Shown: positions 3,927 to 55,368 of the stretch, in pieces
How the letters are laid out: every line of letters begins with the position of its first letter
How positions within the stretch are numbered: the first letter of the stretch is position 1
Virus record (IMG/VR): IMGVR_UViG_3300013426_000013
Coordinates: 125,580-189,579 of that record
DNA from: a virus
Taxonomy: Duplodnaviria; Heunggongvirae; Uroviricota; Caudoviricetes
Length of the DNA: 64,000 nucleotides
Strand: one strand, 5' to 3'
Made by a program: the position numbers and the translations under genes
The notes under the pieces: generated by a model
What the model saw: the letters and a program-made list of their open reading frames with translations, nothing else
The model's database searches: none
Told to the model about the DNA's origin: nothing

Positions 3927-4469
3927 ATGGAATGGACTGAAGATATTGTTGATAAATTAAAAGAGTTGTGGGCTGAAGGATATACAACGCAGAAGATTGC
4001 TGACATGATGCATACAACAAAAGGTACTATTATAGGCAAAGTGCACCGTCTTCAGTTACCTACAAGAAACAAACCTGTAAATTTATGTAAAAAGCATGAA
4101 TGTCATTGTGAACATACTATTGAACACAAACACACATGTAGTTGTCAACACAATAAAGTTAATAAGTCACCATGTATTGAAATTAAAGAAACAAGTATAG
4201 GTGGACATGACGAAGTTAACGAAGAAGTTGATTTGCACAACCTTTATGATGATTCTGTAAAACATGATGATCGTTGTCATAGTGAATACGGTAAAACACT
4301 GTATGAACTAAAACATGATGAATGTCGGTGGCCAATCGGAGATCCTAAATCACCTGAATTTCATTTTTGTGGTGAAAAAACAGTAAATGGAAAACCCTAT
4401 TGTGCTAAACATTGTGCATTTGCATATGTAACAGTTGGTGCTGCTAAAGATTTGAAAAATATAACTTAA
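3927..4469 (+). CDS. gcrA: GcrA-family cell-cycle regulator homolog
   Basis: N-terminal MEWTEDIVDKLKELWAEG...IIGKVHRLQL; C-terminal CRWPIGDP..EFHFCG...GKPYCAKHCAFAY. Confidence 0.93.
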   Translation: MEWTEDIVDKLKELWAEGYTTQKIADMMHTTKGTIIGKVHRLQLPTRNKPVNLCKKHECHCEHTIEHKHTCSCQHNKVNKSPCIEIKETSIGGHDEVNEEVDLHNLYDDSVKHDDRCHSEYGKTLYELKHDECRWPIGDPKSPEFHFCGEKTVNGKPYCAKHCAFAYVTVGAAKDLKNIT

Positions 4470-19434: not shown

Positions 19435-19574
19435 GTTACCACCTTTATAAAATTGCAACTGTTGAAAAATAACATAAAAGAAAAACATTGTCAATGTCTT
19501 ATTTGTTGCTTTTTAGATTAAGTGACTCGTACGAATCATGTTCTTAAAGTTAAAGGTAAATGAAGGAGTGCAAC

Positions 19575-19901
19575 ATGTCAATATATAAAGGCTCAACACC
19601 TATCTCAAAAAATGCTACGTCAAATTGGCAAGCCGCTTTTCCTGATTGGAAAAGACGTGAGATTAAAGCTTCAGGTGTAACTTACACTTCTTCAAAATAT
19701 GGATACATTTTGATCCGTAACACAGCATATACTGACAATTTCCGTGGCTTTATTAATGGTAATGAAGTTTTTCACCAATATGGACATTATAGTCTTTGGG
19801 AAGATTGGAATAGCATTATGTTGGCAATTGCTCCAGGAGATACTTACCAAATATCAGGTTCTGGTGGCGAGTTAATTTTTATTCCAGCTAAAGGCAATTA
19901 A
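19575..19901 (+). CDS. Small tail-associated protein
   Basis: AAGGAG SD; MSIYKG start like 2321-2965; GVTYT..KYGYI..GDTY module. Confidence 0.65.
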   Translation: MSIYKGSTPISKNATSNWQAAFPDWKRREIKASGVTYTSSKYGYILIRNTAYTDNFRGFINGNEVFHQYGHYSLWEDWNSIMLAIAPGDTYQISGSGGELIFIPAKGN

Positions 19902-19904
19902 AAT

Positions 19905-19924
19905 AACTTTCAATTTACCTAACT
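19905..19924 (+). repeat. Shufflon crossover site 1 (AACTTTCAATTTACCTAACT)
   Basis: One of six near-identical 20-bp sites. Confidence 0.9.
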
Positions 19925-20199
19925 GTACGGACTTTATTCCGTGGAAGAGTGCAACACTTCCTGTTGGAAGTTACGGTTTAGGGAATATTCCTAATATTAC
20001 TGGCGCTGCTGGACAAAACAATTATTATGGTGAAGTTTCCGGCGCTTTTTATACTTCCGGGTTAAAAAGCAGTAGTCCAAATAATGCAGGTTCAACTGCT
20101 CAGATATATTTTGATGCTTCTAAATGTTCAGCTGTTTATTCCAATGTAGATCGTGTTGTATGTGCATACGTTGTTTGTCAATATTGTATAAAATATTAA
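19906..20199 (+). other. Silent tail-fibre C-terminal cassette 1 (TFNLPNCTDF...YCIKY)
   Basis: Open frame without a start codon, beginning at site 1. Confidence 0.88.
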
Positions 20200-20519
20200 T
20201 ATTTAATGCAATACATTGCACTTAAAGAATCTGGTCTGACTTTTGCGTTGTCTTTATATACGTTTGATGAACGTGAAGCATCAATTCCAAAACCTTTAGA
20301 ATAAGCTCCTGATATTCCTGCTGCATCAGCGCATTTTGTTGTAGCATGAATGCCATATAAAGCACCACCATTATCGTTAAGCGCGGCATTCCAAGCGACA
20401 GAATAACCAAGACCTTGTTCTACTGTGCCTGTAATATTCGGCAAACTTTCATCGATATACGTTCCTGAAGAATTTGATCCCATTAAATATCTGTTTATAA
20501 AATTAGGTAAATTGAAAGT
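20196..20519 (-). other. Silent cassette 2 (TFNLPNFINRY...YCIKY)
   Basis: Begins at site 2; stop overlaps cassette 1 at TTAA. Confidence 0.88.
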
Positions 20520-20520
20520 T
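20501..20520 (-). repeat. Shufflon crossover site 2
   Basis: AATTAGGTAAATTGAAAGTT on + strand. Confidence 0.9.
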
Positions 20521-20615
20521 GAACTAACTGTCAAATCAACGATAAACCTTTGTGACATTCAAGAAGTTAAAATTTCTGTTCTTTAGAAAAGGTTAATCTT
20601 GTGGGACTTTTTAAA

Positions 20616-22379
20616 ATGGCTAGCGCAGATATTGAAACAAAAACTCTTGTCATTAATCAATTAGACACAGCAAAGTTAAAAGAATTAAAAACTGCTGGAG
20701 AAATTAAGAATGATGAAGTTTATGTTACAACTGATCCGGTGTATCATGATTTAAGCAATATCACACCAATGACGACAGATAAAGTTGTAATTACTGATGC
20801 TGATGGAAAATTTGCGCAATCAGAAACAACATCTGCCGAATTAGCTTTTGTCCACGGTGTTACTAGCAATATCCAGGAACAAATTAATACAAAAGCAAAT
20901 CAATCAGAAGTCAATGACAATCTTGCACTTAAAGCTAATTTAGCATCGCCAGAATTAACAGGAAAACCTTTAGCACCTACAGCTGATACAGGATCAAATG
21001 ACAAACAGGTTGCGACAACTGAATTTGTTACTACGGCTATTAGTAATGCTACACCTGGTGTTGATAATATTACGATTGAATCTTTTGACAATTCAAGTTC
21101 AACTGGTGGCTCGACACATGATATTCGTGTTAAAGATGGTGGTTTGACTATAGAGAAAGTAGCAGCTGATGATATCATTTTGAAAATTGATGAAAAACAA
21201 TCAGATGCAACTCTAGTTTCTTTCGCTAAAGTGAAAGAAATGGTCGACAATGCAACACCTGTTGTTGACACTAAAACAATTTCATACAATGAAAATACAC
21301 AATTACAAAGCATTGGTGTCATTAACAAAAACACAAATGACTCAATGTATCATTGGGTTGGTACTTTAAAAGAATACAATGCAGCCGTTGAAGCTGGAAC
21401 AATTAAAGAGAATTGGGTTTGTTGTATTACAGATGATTTCGTTGAAGGCAAATCATATGCTGGTGAAATAATTCAAGTGACAAAAAAGTTCACAGAAGAG
21501 AATAATCATATTGAATTCACAGAAAAATGTTTAACGAAAAGCTATATTTCAGTTTTTCAAGATCGTGTGTTTATTTATCCTGACGAATACACATTAGATG
21601 ATGACTTTTTAGGCATTACGTTCACGAAGAATATGGCTGTAGGCAGTATTGTAACAGTCAATTATTTTAAAGGCGTTCCTTCAAAAAAGATTGATGAAGT
21701 AATTGCTATAGGTGAAAAGATTCCTACACCTACAGAAAATAATACATCATTAAGTTATGTTGATGATCAAGTTTTATGGCAAGCTTCACCATATTCTAAA
21801 ACAGAAGTTGATACAAAAGTAACTGCTGTTGATGATAAAGTAACTGCGCTAAATACGTCTGTTACACAACTTGATACAAAAGTAACTGACCTTGGCAACA
21901 CAGTCACATCATCAGACGCGCCTGGTTTCATTAAGATTTGGGCTGGTTCTTCCGCACCTGCTGGTTATTTGTTATGTGATGGTTCTGCAGTTAGCAGAAC
22001 TACGTATGCTGCACTGTTTTCAGCCATTGGCACACTTTATGGTGTTGGAGACGGTAGTTCAACTTTCAATTTGCCTAATTTTATAGGTAGGTATCCAAAA
22101 GGCGGGACTGCGGGGGTGTATGGTAGTGCCGCCGTACCTAATATTACCGCAACATGGAATTGTCGTGGTGTTCGTTCTGAGGTTGGTTTATATGACGGAA
22201 CGGGGGCTATAGTTACCAATACAAGTGTTCTTGCAGGTGGCTCTTCAGCAAGCGCAAGTTCTGGTTTTACAGGCCATTGGATACAGTCGTTTGACGCATC
22301 AAGAGTAAGCAGTGTTTATCAAAACACTACAACGGTTGACGCTAACAACACACAGATTTTATTTTGTATCAGATATTAA
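20616..22379 (+). CDS. Tail fibre with tail-collar domain; currently expressed with cassette 3
   Basis: GFIKIWAGSSAPAGYLLCDGSAVSRTTYAALFSAIGTLYGVGDGSSTFNLPN collar motif; ends FCIRY. Confidence 0.9.
   Translation: MASADIETKTLVINQLDTAKLKELKTAGEIKNDEVYVTTDPVYHDLSNITPMTTDKVVITDADGKFAQSETTSAELAFVHGVTSNIQEQINTKANQSEVNDNLALKANLASPELTGKPLAPTADTGSNDKQVATTEFVTTAISNATPGVDNITIESFDNSSSTGGSTHDIRVKDGGLTIEKVAADDIILKIDEKQSDATLVSFAKVKEMVDNATPVVDTKTISYNENTQLQSIGVINKNTNDSMYHWVGTLKEYNAAVEAGTIKENWVCCITDDFVEGKSYAGEIIQVTKKFTEENNHIEFTEKCLTKSYISVFQDRVFIYPDEYTLDDDFLGITFTKNMAVGSIVTVNYFKGVPSKKIDEVIAIGEKIPTPTENNTSLSYVDDQVLWQASPYSKTEVDTKVTAVDDKVTALNTSVTQLDTKVTDLGNTVTSSDAPGFIKIWAGSSAPAGYLLCDGSAVSRTTYAALFSAIGTLYGVGDGSSTFNLPNFIGRYPKGGTAGVYGSAAVPNITATWNCRGVRSEVGLYDGTGAIVTNTSVLAGGSSASASSGFTGHWIQSFDASRVSSVYQNTTTVDANNTQILFCIRY
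22061..22080 (+). repeat. Shufflon crossover site 3 (within the expressed gene)
   Basis: AACTTTCAATTTGCCTAATT. Confidence 0.9.
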
Positions 22380-22678
22380 TATCGTATACAAAAATTAACA
22401 ACGGTAGAAAATGGTTGAACCCTATTGGTTGCTCCATAAATGTTAGAACTGCGTGAAGCGTCAAAAACGATATTGTATGAAGCTGTTGCAGTACCCCCGG
22501 TTCCTCGACCGCCAGTTCCGGCTTCAAGGTAAAAAGAACCTTCCGCTGCTTCTACCTGACGAGTGTTTATTATTTTTCCTGTTATATTTGGCAACCCTTG
22601 CGATAACATAGTACCAACAACACCCAAAGAACCAAAACCGACTGGATACCTATCACCAAAATTAGGCAAATTGAAAGT
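22376..22678 (-). other. Silent cassette 4 (TFNLPNFGDRY...FCIRY)
   Basis: Begins at site 4; stop overlaps cassette 3. Confidence 0.88.
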
Positions 22679-22679
22679 T
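22660..22679 (-). repeat. Shufflon crossover site 4
   Basis: AATTAGGCAAATTGAAAGTT on + strand. Confidence 0.9.
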
Positions 22680-22751
22680 AATTTTTGTGATTTACATTTT
22701 AAAGATTGTATAAATGTTCTTAAATATAACTTGCGATCAGGAGCTTGTAAA

Positions 22752-23597
22752 ATGACACATGGTTTAATTACTTTAAGAGCAGATACTTTATTAACTGTTG
22801 ACACAGATCAACAAATTAGTGGTAATAAAGAATTTACTGGAAGTTTGCAAGCTGTTACAAAAGATGCTTCTGATAGTTCAAAAAATGTTGCTACAACTGA
22901 ATATGTTACTACTGCAATTTCAAATATTGACGCTTTACCTGATCAAACGAATAAATCTGGTAATGTTTTGACAACAAACGGTACAGTTGCATCATGGGTT
23001 GATTTAAATCTTGATTCAAAACAAAATGCGTTAACAGAAACGCAAGTTGCCGCTGTTGATTCTGGTATTACAACAGATAGAGTATCAAAGTATGATAATT
23101 ACGAATCAGAAAAAGCGAATAAAGCAGATACTTTAGCAGGTTATGGGATTACTGATGCATTTACAAAAGACGAAATAGCAAGTAAAATTTCATCAGTATA
23201 TAAATACAAAGGGTCAGTTGAAACAGTCGACGATTTGCCAACAGAAAACTTAACAGAAGGTGATGTTTACAATGTTAAGTCAACTGGTGATAATTATGCA
23301 TGGGTTGCACCTGTTGGCGATGTTGCAGGTTTTTGGGATAAACTTGCTGGTGATATCGATTTATCAGCATATGCAACATTGAAAGACCCAGAATTCACTG
23401 GAACACCTAAAGCTACAACAGCTGATGTTGGTGATAATACAACAAGAATTGCAACCACAGCATTTGTTAAAACAGCTATTGATAATGTCGATGCTATTCC
23501 TGACCAAACTGGAAATAACGGGAAGTTATTAACGACAGATGGGACAACAGCCACATGGACTGATGCTGTTAAAATTACACTAAGAAATTGGGAATAG
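22752..23597 (+). CDS. Tail-fibre-associated protein inside the shufflon
   Basis: CAGGAG SD; duplicated ATTxxVxTAIxNxDAxPDQT..G..LTT.GT.A.W module; VYKYKGSVETVDDLP. Confidence 0.75.
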   Translation: MTHGLITLRADTLLTVDTDQQISGNKEFTGSLQAVTKDASDSSKNVATTEYVTTAISNIDALPDQTNKSGNVLTTNGTVASWVDLNLDSKQNALTETQVAAVDSGITTDRVSKYDNYESEKANKADTLAGYGITDAFTKDEIASKISSVYKYKGSVETVDDLPTENLTEGDVYNVKSTGDNYAWVAPVGDVAGFWDKLAGDIDLSAYATLKDPEFTGTPKATTADVGDNTTRIATTAFVKTAIDNVDAIPDQTGNNGKLLTTDGTTATWTDAVKITLRNWE

Positions 23598-23601
23598 AAC
23601 G

Positions 23602-23973
23602 ATGTCTTTAGAAATTAAACAAATCGAACATTACTTAAGATCCTTTATGGAAGAAATTGAAAAAGATGAAGGAATTGATACTGTTGTACTCCCAACAGAT
23701 AACGAAGACCATGGATTTTATGGTGAACTAAAAGCTAAAGGTATTGATGAAGATTTGTTATCAACATATTGGAACATTGCTTCAGAACATTTACAAAACA
23801 ACTGTGATATGTCCGCTGAACTGACTCGTGACTTTTTAGATAGCAAAGCAGGTCGTTATCTAGTTGATGATTTAGATAATAATGGCTTACTTGACAATAA
23901 TTTTGAACGTGCAATTAAACAGTTTTTAACAAAACCAGAGGTTCAAAAGCGTCTAAACGTTGTCAACAATTGA
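23602..23973 (+). CDS. Hypothetical acidic protein
   Basis: 123-aa ORF. Confidence 0.7.
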   Translation: MSLEIKQIEHYLRSFMEEIEKDEGIDTVVLPTDNEDHGFYGELKAKGIDEDLLSTYWNIASEHLQNNCDMSAELTRDFLDSKAGRYLVDDLDNNGLLDNNFERAIKQFLTKPEVQKRLNVVNN

Positions 23974-24741
23974 TTTAGCAAATTTATCAAAAATTTTATA
24001 ATTAGTTTTAAATTTAACAAACTTTAGGTAATCGTCTAAATTATTTGCTTTAACCCAATTTTGAATCGTTTTATATGAGATTCTAAATCGTTTTGCGATT
24101 TTGATTTTTGACAAACCTTTTAATCTTAATTTTAAGTATTTGTACTTTTTGCCATCAGTAACATGATGTTTGCAGACATATCCTTTAGGCCTACCTAATA
24201 TTTTACCTTTAGCTTTTGCATTAGCTAACCCTTCTTTTGTACGTGCACTAATCATTCTTCGTTCAATGTCAGCACATAAAGAAAATGCAAATGCAATAAC
24301 TTGAGATGTTAAGTCGTCACCTAAAGTGTAATTTTCTTTTACTGAATAAACTTTAGCGCCTGTTTTCAAAATACTATTTAATAAACATAATAATTCAGTC
24401 ATTGTTCTAGACAATCTTGACAACTCTGAACAAATAACAATGTCACCATCTTTTAATTTTTTCAACAGTTTACCTAAATTTCTGTTTTCGGCTTTAACGG
24501 TTCCTGAAATACCTTCATCAATTATATATTCATCAATGGTTAAAGATTTTTGTTTAGCAAAAGATTCTACCCCAATCTTTTGAGACTCAACTGTTTGCAT
24601 GCCAGTAGAAACACGTAAATAACTATATACTTTTAAAGAATGTTCTTTTACAGGTAATTGCGCGGTCAATCTTCTCTTTTCAGCATTGCGTTTATATTTA
24701 CGGTTTATAGCAGCTGATGGGTACACATGACGTTTAGACAT
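23953..24741 (-). CDS. Serine recombinase (resolvase/invertase family) with C-terminal HTH
   Basis: YSYLRVST catalytic Ser motif, DEGISG, SELSRLSR, ERRMISARTKEGLANAKAKGKILGRP. Confidence 0.93.
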   Translation of the reverse strand: MSKRHVYPSAAINRKYKRNAEKRRLTAQLPVKEHSLKVYSYLRVSTGMQTVESQKIGVESFAKQKSLTIDEYIIDEGISGTVKAENRNLGKLLKKLKDGDIVICSELSRLSRTMTELLCLLNSILKTGAKVYSVKENYTLGDDLTSQVIAFAFSLCADIERRMISARTKEGLANAKAKGKILGRPKGYVCKHHVTDGKKYKYLKLRLKGLSKIKIAKRFRISYKTIQNWVKANNLDDYLKFVKFKTNYKIFDKFAKSIVDNV

Positions 24742-24848
24742 TTCTTTTCCTTTTACTTGTTAAAATGTTGAACAACATTATCAACAAAATAATTTACTTT
24801 TCAAGATTATAAAAATTTTTATTTTGCGTTATTCTGAAAAATTTGACT

Positions 24849-24868
24849 AACTTTCAATTTACCTAATT
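24849..24868 (+). repeat. Shufflon crossover site 5
   Basis: AACTTTCAATTTACCTAATT. Confidence 0.9.
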
Positions 24869-25245
24869 TATCAAAACAAAGAGAGGTTGTTGAAACATAT
24901 CGTAATGGAACTGAATGGTATTGCGTTTATTCAGACGGATGGGTTGAACAAGGTGGTATTTTTCAAGGAGATTCAACTTATAAATTAACTGCTTATAATT
25001 TTCATAAACCGTTTAAAGATACAAATTACTTTTTTATTGCGACAATAAACAATTTAGGTCACTCGTGGTTTACCGGCACAAGCGGGGCAGATATGCGTTC
25101 TGTAACCGATATAGCCAGTTCATATGGTGCTGGTTTAAAAACATCTACATCAATATCAATTCAAGGGTTTTCAAAACATGCGTGGTATGCATGTGGTCAA
25201 GGTTTGCAACAGCAATCAGCAAAGATATATTGTATAAAATATTAA
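24850..25245 (+). other. Silent cassette 5 (TFNLPNLSKQ...WYCVYSDGWVEQGG...YCIKY); not in the ORF track
   Basis: Translated by hand: 131 codons open from site 5 to TAA. Confidence 0.88.
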
Positions 25246-25574
25246 TATTTTATACAATATAAAATAATTATTGCATTTTGTTGTACTTTTGCATTGTCTT
25301 GATAAGTTGAAGAAGAACGAGTAGCGTTTAGAATAAGCGTAGATGAACGTCCTCCTGTAGCTGTATCTAAATTAGCTGTATATCTTTCACTAGCAACAGT
25401 TGTAATACCACCATTGTAAAACACACCAGAACTACCACCCCAATCCCAGGGTGTTCTATTTCCGATCGCCTTGCCTGTAATATTTGGCAAACTTTCGTTA
25501 ACATAAGAGCCAACACCGCCACGATCACCAAAACCTTGCGCAATACGATCTGTAAAATTAGGTAAATTGAAAGT
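25242..25574 (-). other. Silent cassette 6 (TFNLPNFTDRI...YCIKY)
   Basis: Begins at site 6; stop overlaps cassette 5. Confidence 0.88.
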
Positions 25575-25575
25575 T
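25556..25575 (-). repeat. Shufflon crossover site 6
   Basis: AATTAGGTAAATTGAAAGTT on + strand. Confidence 0.9.
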
Positions 25576-27148: not shown

Positions 27149-27406
27149 ATGTCTGAAGAAGAAACAAAAAGCGTAAATGGTGTTGATGGTGCTCGTCTGT
27201 TGAGCTACATTGAACGTTATGAATCGATTGAAGAAGAACGTAAAGGTCTAGGTCAGGATCTTAAGGAACTTCTAGAAGAAGCTGATAGTAATGGCTTTGA
27301 CAAGAAAGCGATTAAAGAAATTGTCAAACGCCGCAAGAAAGATAAAAATACACAGCAGGAAGAAGACTTTATCCTCGATACATATTTGAACGCATTGAAT
27401 ATGTAA
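27149..27406 (+). CDS. gapR: GapR/DUF2312-family nucleoid-associated protein
   Basis: LLSYIERYESIEEERKGLGQDLKELLEEADSNGFDKKAIKEIVKRRKKD...LDTYLNALNM. Confidence 0.88.
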   Translation: MSEEETKSVNGVDGARLLSYIERYESIEEERKGLGQDLKELLEEADSNGFDKKAIKEIVKRRKKDKNTQQEEDFILDTYLNALNM

Positions 27407-54351: not shown

Positions 54352-55368
54352 TTACTTAAAGCAACCGATAACGCTTTCGGCAACATCTTCAGGCATGCCG
54401 CAATCGACAAGAACTTTCTTGCATTTCTTGCAGCTTTCTTCCTGTTTATCGGAATTGATGAATTCATCAACAGCAGATTCAACTTCTTCCTGTTTGTCAT
54501 CAGCAATCAGTTTTTCAAGATCAACTGTACTCTTCAAGTTGATACCTGAATCTTCCAATGCAGCTTTCAATTCTTTAGCGTCTTTAAACGCGCCAGCTTT
54601 GAAAATGACGCCAACGTTTGTCTTCGGATCAAAAATACCGACAACATTTTCACCTTTCTTGGCAACGGCTAATTTATCTTCACCTTCACCTTCGAAATCG
54701 ACATCAGCATCCATAGCTTTAGCATTGTTAATAAACGCATCAGCTGAATCCATTTCATCTTTTTCGTCTTTAGCGGCTTCAGACATAACTTTCAATGTAT
54801 CTAACATTAAAATGTCTTTAGCATATTCAGGGTTGTCACGAATTTCAATCGCTTCAACCAACTGCGCATTCTTCGTTGTAATTTTGTTTTCGAAGATTTT
54901 CTGCATTTTAGCAGCTTCATCAATCTTATGTTCGTTTTTAACAACAGGCAGTTCAACGCCCGCTGATTTCATTTCGAATAAAGATTCTTTACGTTTCTTC
55001 GCATCTTTCAAAGCTGAACGAATTTCATTTGTATCTGAAACAGCTTTGATTAAATCAGATGTAACGATACGCATGTTTTTGGCTTCAACGAAAGTAAATT
55101 TCTGATAGTTGACATCAGACAATTCTTCTTTGCAAGCAACGTTTTTAATCAGTTCACGAGCAATGTCGCAATCTTCAACCAAATATGAATTACGACCGTC
55201 CTGAACGACTAAATTTTCGCCTTCAGCACCTAAAATAACTTCTTCACCCATTAGGAATTTAGCATCTCCTTTACGGGTTTCCAAAGTCATATCTTCCATG
55301 ACAATGAACTTGTCGTTTGTTAAGCCGTTAAGGGCTAATTTATTTTGAGCTTCAATTAAATGACGCAT
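54352..55368 (-). CDS. Acidic protein, possibly head-internal or scaffold
   Basis: 338 aa, Glu/Asp/Lys-rich, strongly biased codon usage. Confidence 0.6.
   Translation of the reverse strand: MRHLIEAQNKLALNGLTNDKFIVMEDMTLETRKGDAKFLMGEEVILGAEGENLVVQDGRNSYLVEDCDIARELIKNVACKEELSDVNYQKFTFVEAKNMRIVTSDLIKAVSDTNEIRSALKDAKKRKESLFEMKSAGVELPVVKNEHKIDEAAKMQKIFENKITTKNAQLVEAIEIRDNPEYAKDILMLDTLKVMSEAAKDEKDEMDSADAFINNAKAMDADVDFEGEGEDKLAVAKKGENVVGIFDPKTNVGVIFKAGAFKDAKELKAALEDSGINLKSTVDLEKLIADDKQEEVESAVDEFINSDKQEESCKKCKKVLVDCGMPEDVAESVIGCFK

Follow-up and report, generated by a model that had tools for sequence, protein, structure and literature searches.

Natural rearrangements of a six-tip tail-fibre locus in an uncultured 313-kb gut phage

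The genome of an uncultured gut phage (IMG/VR record IMGVR_UViG_3300013426_000013; 313,762 bp) contains a 5.7-kb locus that very probably operates as a multiple-inversion switch, or shufflon, which determines the receptor-binding tip carried by a tail-collar fibre. The stretch analyzed, bases 125580-189579 of that record, is called the window (64,000 nucleotides [nt]), and positions refer to it. Six polar copies of a 20-bp site cut the locus into five segments, which carry a constant fibre head, six alternative tip cassettes, and the gene for a serine DNA invertase. In public assemblies of the same phage, these segments are rearranged, and each joint coincides precisely with a site; each of the six tips occurs joined to the head in one assembly or another, and the pattern is one of inversions only. 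The resident invertase would recombine any two opposite sites, inverting the DNA between them. Whatever the isomer, the head would then run in frame from its 3′ end into a single cassette, the junction falling at T-F-N-L-P-N within the collar domain, and each virion lineage would display one of six fibres.

Six crossover sites, one fibre head, and six tip cassettes

The site, AACTTTCAATTTRCCTAAYT, has six perfect matches in the window, in strictly alternating order (+ - + - + -). No match is expected by chance (100 shuffles), and a seventh copy with one mismatch or fewer is absent from the whole 313,762-bp genome. The sites and the parts of the fibre gene that they delimit are as follows.

19905..19924, +: crossover site 1 (A at nt 13, C at nt 19)
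20501..20520, -: crossover site 2
22061..22080, +: crossover site 3 (G at nt 13), in frame within the expressed fibre gene
22660..22679, -: crossover site 4
24849..24868, +: crossover site 5
25556..25575, -: crossover site 6, next to the fixed right flank
20616..22061, +: constant tail-fibre head, 482 amino acids (aa), holding most of the tail-collar domain, on invertible segment 20521-22060
19906..20199, +: tip cassette A, silent, 97 aa
20196..20519, -: tip cassette B, silent, 107 aa
22062..22379, +: tip cassette C, 105 aa, continuing the head (the expressed form in this record)
22376..22678, -: tip cassette D, silent, 100 aa
24850..25245, +: tip cassette E, silent, 131 aa
25242..25574, -: tip cassette F, silent, 110 aa

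The five segments are three tip modules (A/B, C/D, and E/F, each a convergent pair of cassettes), one head segment (20521-22060), and one invertase segment (22680-24848). Read from its second base, each site encodes TFNLPN and opens a frame that ends in (Y/F)CI(K/R)Y*. Five of the six cassettes have no start codon at the site, and cassette B has a spurious upstream ATG. The tips are 21 to 45% identical in pairwise comparisons, with cassette E as the outlier (21 to 29% identity to the other tips).

The fibre has many PHROG tail-fibre matches and a single Pfam Collar domain (PF07484; residues 437-494; 81 bits against a gathering cut-off of 24), and it is encoded by the only Collar gene of the genome. 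The TFNLPN peptide lies near the C-terminal end of the Collar match, which places the crossover site in the family's most conserved motif. Across 19 aligned homologues, the sequence is invariant through T-F-N-L-P and divergent directly after it.

Two further features of the cassette ends were observed. The stop codons of paired cassettes overlap in a palindrome, TATTAATA (20181-20216, 22362-22393, and 25226-25261), which may be a two-way terminator hairpin; the E/F copy has perfect 18-nt arms, and breaks in Logan contigs fall exactly there. At the left end of the head segment (20521-20558), a relic of the final codons of the head is present (..VSS-TFNLPN compared with ..GSS-TFNLPN), giving rise to a 40-nt, 88% inverted repeat with site 3 and to a spurious, ATG-started open reading frame of 120 aa across cassette B.

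Rearrangements in other assemblies of the same phage

At 90% identity, the fibre belongs to a protein cluster of nine members with six different lengths. The head is identical across all 482 aa in eight of the nine; P0123 differs at one residue. The tails are exactly cassettes A (P0121, P0128), B (P0123, P0126; head-fused also in P0017), C (P0122), D (P0125, P0127), E (P0124), and F (P0001). Thus, clustering at 90% fuses the six alternative products of the shufflon into one cluster, and unequal member lengths combined with identical N-termini are a cheap signature of active shufflons in protein databases. Virome surveys should be read with caution, since loci of this type fragment assemblies and make a single fibre gene look like several “different” proteins.

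Segments 1 to 5 and the flanks were mapped onto the contigs encoding the fibres of this cluster. In 15 loci from other public assemblies of the same phage, the inter-site segments are 99.3 to 100% identical and the flanks 99.7 to 100% identical. Among the 16 contigs (these loci and the window), some pairs of which (ERZ/SRR) probably share the same reads, 12 distinct orders and orientations were found, and each joint lies exactly at a site. Read from the left flank to the right flank, with the tip joined to the head, the arrangements are as follows.

Window and L079: [1+2+3+4+5+], tip C
L017 (GCA_902725505.1): [1+2+3-4+5+], tip D
L015 and L016: [3+2+1-4+5+], tip B
L076: [3+2+1+4+5-], tip A
L012: [3-4+5+2+1+], tip A
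L013 and L014: [3-4+5-2+1+], tip A
L018: [1+2-5-4-3-], tip B
L019: [5-4-3-2+1-], tip B
L011: [?4-1+2+5-], tip F
L020: [..4-1+2+5+..], tip E
L077 and L078: [3+2-..], tip D
L080: [3-2-1-..], tip C

Because inversion takes place between opposite sites only, slots 1, 3, and 5 would always hold tip modules, and slots 2 and 4 would hold the head and invertase segments. Enumeration of the states reachable under this rule yields 384 isomers, all of which obey this slot restriction; every isomer has an intact fibre gene, and each tip is expressed in 64 of them. All observed arrangements belong to this set, lie one to four inversions from the form seen in the window, and carry the predicted tip each time. 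No deletion product was found among the 16 contigs, in a search that, being made through the fibre protein, is blind to deletions removing the head.

The shufflon reading of the first-pass annotation is thus upheld by 12 arrangements joined at the sites and by the fusion of all six tips to the head in other assemblies, and the alternative orientations, whose absence from deep reads or related genomes would have spoken against it, occur among the 15 other loci. The pattern from which it started, six alternating sites opening start-less frames, was recovered by exact pattern search and translation, and the resolvase/invertase gene that it had placed inside the locus encodes a protein with Resolvase and helix-turn-helix (HTH) domains at 23953-24741 (-). 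Its statement that only the third copy is fused to the head holds for this record; elsewhere, other tips are fused.

Contig ends also bear on the mixture of forms. Four SPAdes contigs start with a 55-nt word sited precisely at the points where identity between alternative junctions starts or stops. In two samples, this word consists of 37 nt of segment 4 and nt 1-18 of the site, just before polymorphic nt 19; another consists of 35 nt of cassette B and the whole site; and one lies 3 nt past the site, which is the point of divergence of cassettes B and F. If the k-mer length of these contigs is 55, a SPAdes default, such starts would correspond to forks in the de Bruijn graph caused by isomers coexisting in one sample.

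The invertase, the crossover point, and related loci

The invertase segment carries the recombinase gene and two passengers.

23953..24741, -: serine DNA invertase, 262 aa, with Resolvase and HTH domains; PHROG “DNA invertase”; Mpi branch
22752..23597, +: fibre-like protein, 281 aa, with PHROG tail-fibre matches and an AGGAG ribosome-binding site; passenger
23602..23973, +: 123-aa protein (phrog_8020), no assigned function; passenger

In the invertase, PF00239 covers residues 38-180 and HTH_23 covers residues 203-232, and the protein retains Ser45 (the catalytic residue, aligned with Ser9 of Gin), Arg43, and the RLSR motif. The best curated family is NCBIfam NF009949, the Mpi “master DNA invertase” (217.9 bits; E value, 1.1e-64; profile positions 2-197 of 203), although this score lies below the equivalog cut-off of 272 bits. 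The protein is 50% identical to an Mpi-family protein over its full length, including the HTH domain, and 49.7% identical to the invertase of Bacteroides phage B124-14. Identity to Mu Gin is 31% and confined to the catalytic domain; in a PDB search, Gin scores no higher than the Tn3 or gamma-delta resolvases, and the Hin/Fin-type invertases of Escherichia coli phages are ∼34% identical, with E values near 1e-6. By these comparisons, the enzyme is assigned to the Mpi branch, outside the Gin/Cin/Hin/Pin/Min branch. Its length departs from the ∼200-aa Mpi architecture without extensions: a basic N-terminal tail of 37 aa and a C-terminal tail of 25 to 40 aa are conserved across six homologues from phages and missing in Mpi-like proteins and Gin. 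It is the only intact small serine recombinase of the genome. A partial Resolvase match (25 bits; profile positions 55-145) was observed outside the window, at G000:C1:40822-41091.

The polymorphic positions of the site were used to locate the crossover. The bases at nt 13 (A/G) and nt 19 (T/C) always move with the cassette and the left flank moves with the left segment, so strand exchange probably occurs, at a central dinucleotide, within nt 1-12 (AACTTTCAATTT). Two centres are compatible with this mapping, CT at nt 3-4 and TC at nt 6-7. The best guess is TC at nt 6-7, for which the right half-site would cover exactly the conserved nt 8-19. A dyad centre at nt 14-15 has the top symmetry score (39/72) and was excluded, since nt 13 moves with the cassette. 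The gix site of Mu (TTATCCAAAACC-TC-GGTTTACAGGAA, taken from the Mu record) has nothing in common with the 20-bp site. Nor does the site, which is located in coding sequence, contain the Mpi consensus, reportedly ARACGTWCGT. A look-alike, AACTTTCAATGTATCTAACA, with three mismatches and the same first 10 nt, was noted at 54787-54806, 29 kb off the shufflon.

Two relatives help to place the locus. In the closer one (head 86% and invertase 90% identical), a 12.9-kb contig carries at least five sites, and the tips are just 31 to 54% identical to those of the window. Its sites, GACWTTTAATTTGCCTAATT, encode the same peptide with other synonymous bases and are nearly uniform in that genome, which argues that the DNA sequence itself is maintained, beyond the peptide alone, as a recombination site should be. 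The second, from pig gut (L071:11414-13524; head 76% identical), has two sites, two tips, and a 63-codon stump of the invertase gene (residues 200-262), and it lacks modules 1 and 5 as well as the 113-aa gene that precedes site 1 in the window; its switch is probably decayed and frozen. A megablast search of GenBank phages with the locus returned no match, and no relative of the locus was found in IMG/VR with the fibre or the invertase as the query. Scans of IMG/VR with the exact and a relaxed site gave single or direct-repeat matches only and none in alternating orientation; the four matches inspected are solitary TFNLPN frames without a second site.

Competing explanations, known systems, and genomic context

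Several points limit the reading of the locus as an active, invertase-driven switch of tip specificity. The resident invertase is the presumed catalyst, and switching inside one population is suggested by the contig ends and by near-identical genomes whose arrangements differ. The tips may differ in receptor or host specificity, a reading drawn from their divergent sequences, and an AlphaFold prediction of fibre residues 395-587 gave an unusable model (mean predicted local distance difference test score, 47; predicted template modelling score, 0.18). At the level of the site, dyad symmetry is weak (at best 38/72 positions at the allowed centres), and conservation is missing from the left half-site, an unusual feature in a site bound by a dimer of a serine recombinase. 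Finally, no enhancer or accessory factor was identified, there being no model for a Fis-bound element to search with.

The most durable of the alternatives, though quite unlikely, is that the arrangements are old, fixed differences between strains, left by a switch that was once active or by rare recombination and is now silent. That such loci can freeze is illustrated by the relative that lost most of its invertase gene; however, the gene in the window is intact and encodes the catalytic residues. Moreover, the 12 arrangements occur among genomes whose flanks are 99.7 to 100% identical, several of them from one study series; up to four inversions separate the arrangements; and the contig ends fit mixed populations.

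It is very unlikely that the inversions are real but the catalyst is another, with either homologous recombination at short inverted repeats or a host recombinase in trans doing the work. The stretch shared by all six sites is only 20 bp long (in some pairs, up to 40 nt at ∼88% identity), which is very short for homologous recombination. Invertases that act in trans are known (Mpi; PMC6109161), but the joints are precise, inversions alone are seen in the 16 contigs, and among relatives the invertase gene accompanies the multi-cassette locus, being decayed in the case with only two cassettes left. The idea that the arrangements are assembly artefacts at a repeat has a negligible chance of being right: repeats can misjoin and several contigs end at or near sites, but the repeat, at 20 to 40 bp, is shorter than the assembler k-mers (k117-k141 in MEGAHIT contig names; 55 for SPAdes), so that each joint must be spanned by reads, and the same joints recur in SPAdes, MEGAHIT, Logan, and one NCBI-deposited genome, always keeping the reading frame and the parity rule.

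Beyond an active shufflon as such, a wider proposal can be put forward only tentatively, as we consider it somewhat less probable than its opposite. The tailed invertase of this phage clade might be a self-contained, Mpi-branch enzyme of multiplex inversion that acts by inversion only, on short, half-conserved sites and without Fis or an enhancer; all parts (the promoter-bearing head, the invertase gene, and the three tip modules) would permute, and the six tips would amount to six receptor specificities.

The principle of tail-fibre inversion is already known from Mu, P1, and p15B, and the locus is Min-like in logic and outside the Min enzyme branch. The analogy to Gin, Cin, and Min drawn in the first-pass annotation accordingly stands for the logic and fails for the recombinase, which groups with Mpi; its remarks that the site is not gix-like and that the phage is of the jumbo type agree with the comparison to Mu gix and with the 313,762-bp genome. 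The Min system of p15B is reported to have been described by Sandmeier, Iida, and Arber in 1992, and its constant part and min reportedly fall outside the DNA that inverts; the present locus, in a 313-kb phage, has both its constant head and its invertase gene on invertible segments. Min comprises six crossover sites and a small serine recombinase that generates many isomers of the 3′ end of a tail-fibre gene (PMC6109161). The present locus shares with it the number of sites, the type of recombinase, and an arrangement in which start-less 3′ cassettes are attached, in frame, to a single 5′ part of a tail-fibre gene, thereby varying the receptor-binding end. In contrast, Min belongs to the Gin/Cin/Hin/Pin branch and has gix/cix-like dyad sites, whereas the enzyme here is of the Mpi branch and the unrelated site lies in a tail-collar motif.

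Inversion at the gix sites of Mu uses a Fis-dependent enhancer. In the Gin/G segment system of Mu and the Cin/C segment system of P1, a serine invertase flips a site-bounded tail-fibre segment and swaps the C-terminal part (Mu annotation), just as is proposed for the present locus. Mu has two sites with a 26-bp dyad (gix) built of inverted 12-bp half-sites, two tips, each with a chaperone gene (U/U′), and a fixed constant part; the present locus has six sites, six tips in modules without chaperone genes, and a different site and enzyme branch. The closest enzyme family to the phage invertase is that of Mpi, reportedly the global serine invertase of Bacteroides fragilis (work attributed to Coyne et al., 2003). 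Mpi flips promoters at dispersed chromosomal sites (PMC6109161). Unlike Mpi, the phage enzymes have extra tails, and the sites of the enzyme described here are within coding sequence at one locus. The Rin shufflon of Bifidobacterium prophages was likewise traced by genome comparison, which revealed every alternative full-length gene (Mavrich et al. 2018, PMC6109161). Both Rin and the R64 pilV shufflon (Rci) resemble the present locus in having several short asymmetric sites before start-less, C-terminal cassettes of receptor-binding proteins, but they employ tyrosine recombinases, whereas a serine recombinase is encoded here.

A literature search yielded no description of a switch of this kind in a jumbo phage, and inversions, shufflons, and invertases go unmentioned in a 2026 jumbo-phage review. 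If the switch operates as proposed, a huge uncultured gut phage would hedge host recognition six ways by means of 5.7 kb of DNA, and public metagenome assemblies alone sufficed to make the case for its activity. With an enzyme from the little-studied Mpi branch and a compact, 20-bp site in a conserved structural motif, the system is a candidate for use in multiplex inversion and offers a case in which to examine how serine invertases that do not belong to the Gin/Hin group favour inversion over deletion.

The host may be sought among the Alphaproteobacteria. The phage encodes GcrA-like (E value, 4e-31) and GapR-like proteins (window ∼3927-4448 and 27149-27406); GcrA and GapR are cell-cycle and nucleoid proteins that are hallmarks of Alphaproteobacteria and their phages. 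Relatives derive from pig-gut metagenomes. A host search with GapR gave no match among genome contigs and only phage copies in the protein database. The alphaproteobacterial affiliation given in the first-pass annotation is thus hinted at by these two genes and found no counterpart in direct host searches; as a reading of the gene content, it is plausible and unproven.

Finally, the left flank holds a gene and a palindromic box, and the head segment holds a promoter-like motif.

19560..19901, +: 113-aa gene (108 aa from the ATG at 19575), no assigned function; last gene of the fixed left flank
19527..19534, +: palindromic box TCGTACGA in the fixed left flank, upstream of the 113-aa gene
20577..20585, +: promoter-like motif TGTTCTTTA, 39 nt upstream of the head ATG, on the invertible head segment

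The 113-aa gene stops 3 nt before site 1 and adjoins slot 1 in all isomers. The motif TGTTCTTWA occurs at 19539-19547, 20577-20585, and 22715-22723, that is, 36 to 39 nt upstream of three ATGs: those of the left-flank gene (19575) and the 281-aa gene (22752), both at 36 to 37 nt, and that of the head. Among these three genes, only the left-flank gene is preceded by the TCGTACGA box. Because the head segment inverts and moves, it would need its own promoter, and, judging from these motifs, every mobile segment appears to bring along a promoter-like element of its own. For the invertase, a promoter-like site is present within its own segment, but the sigma-70 scan was not above the shuffled background. 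Across the window, TGTTCTTWA is weakly enriched, with eight matches compared with 4.2 expected.

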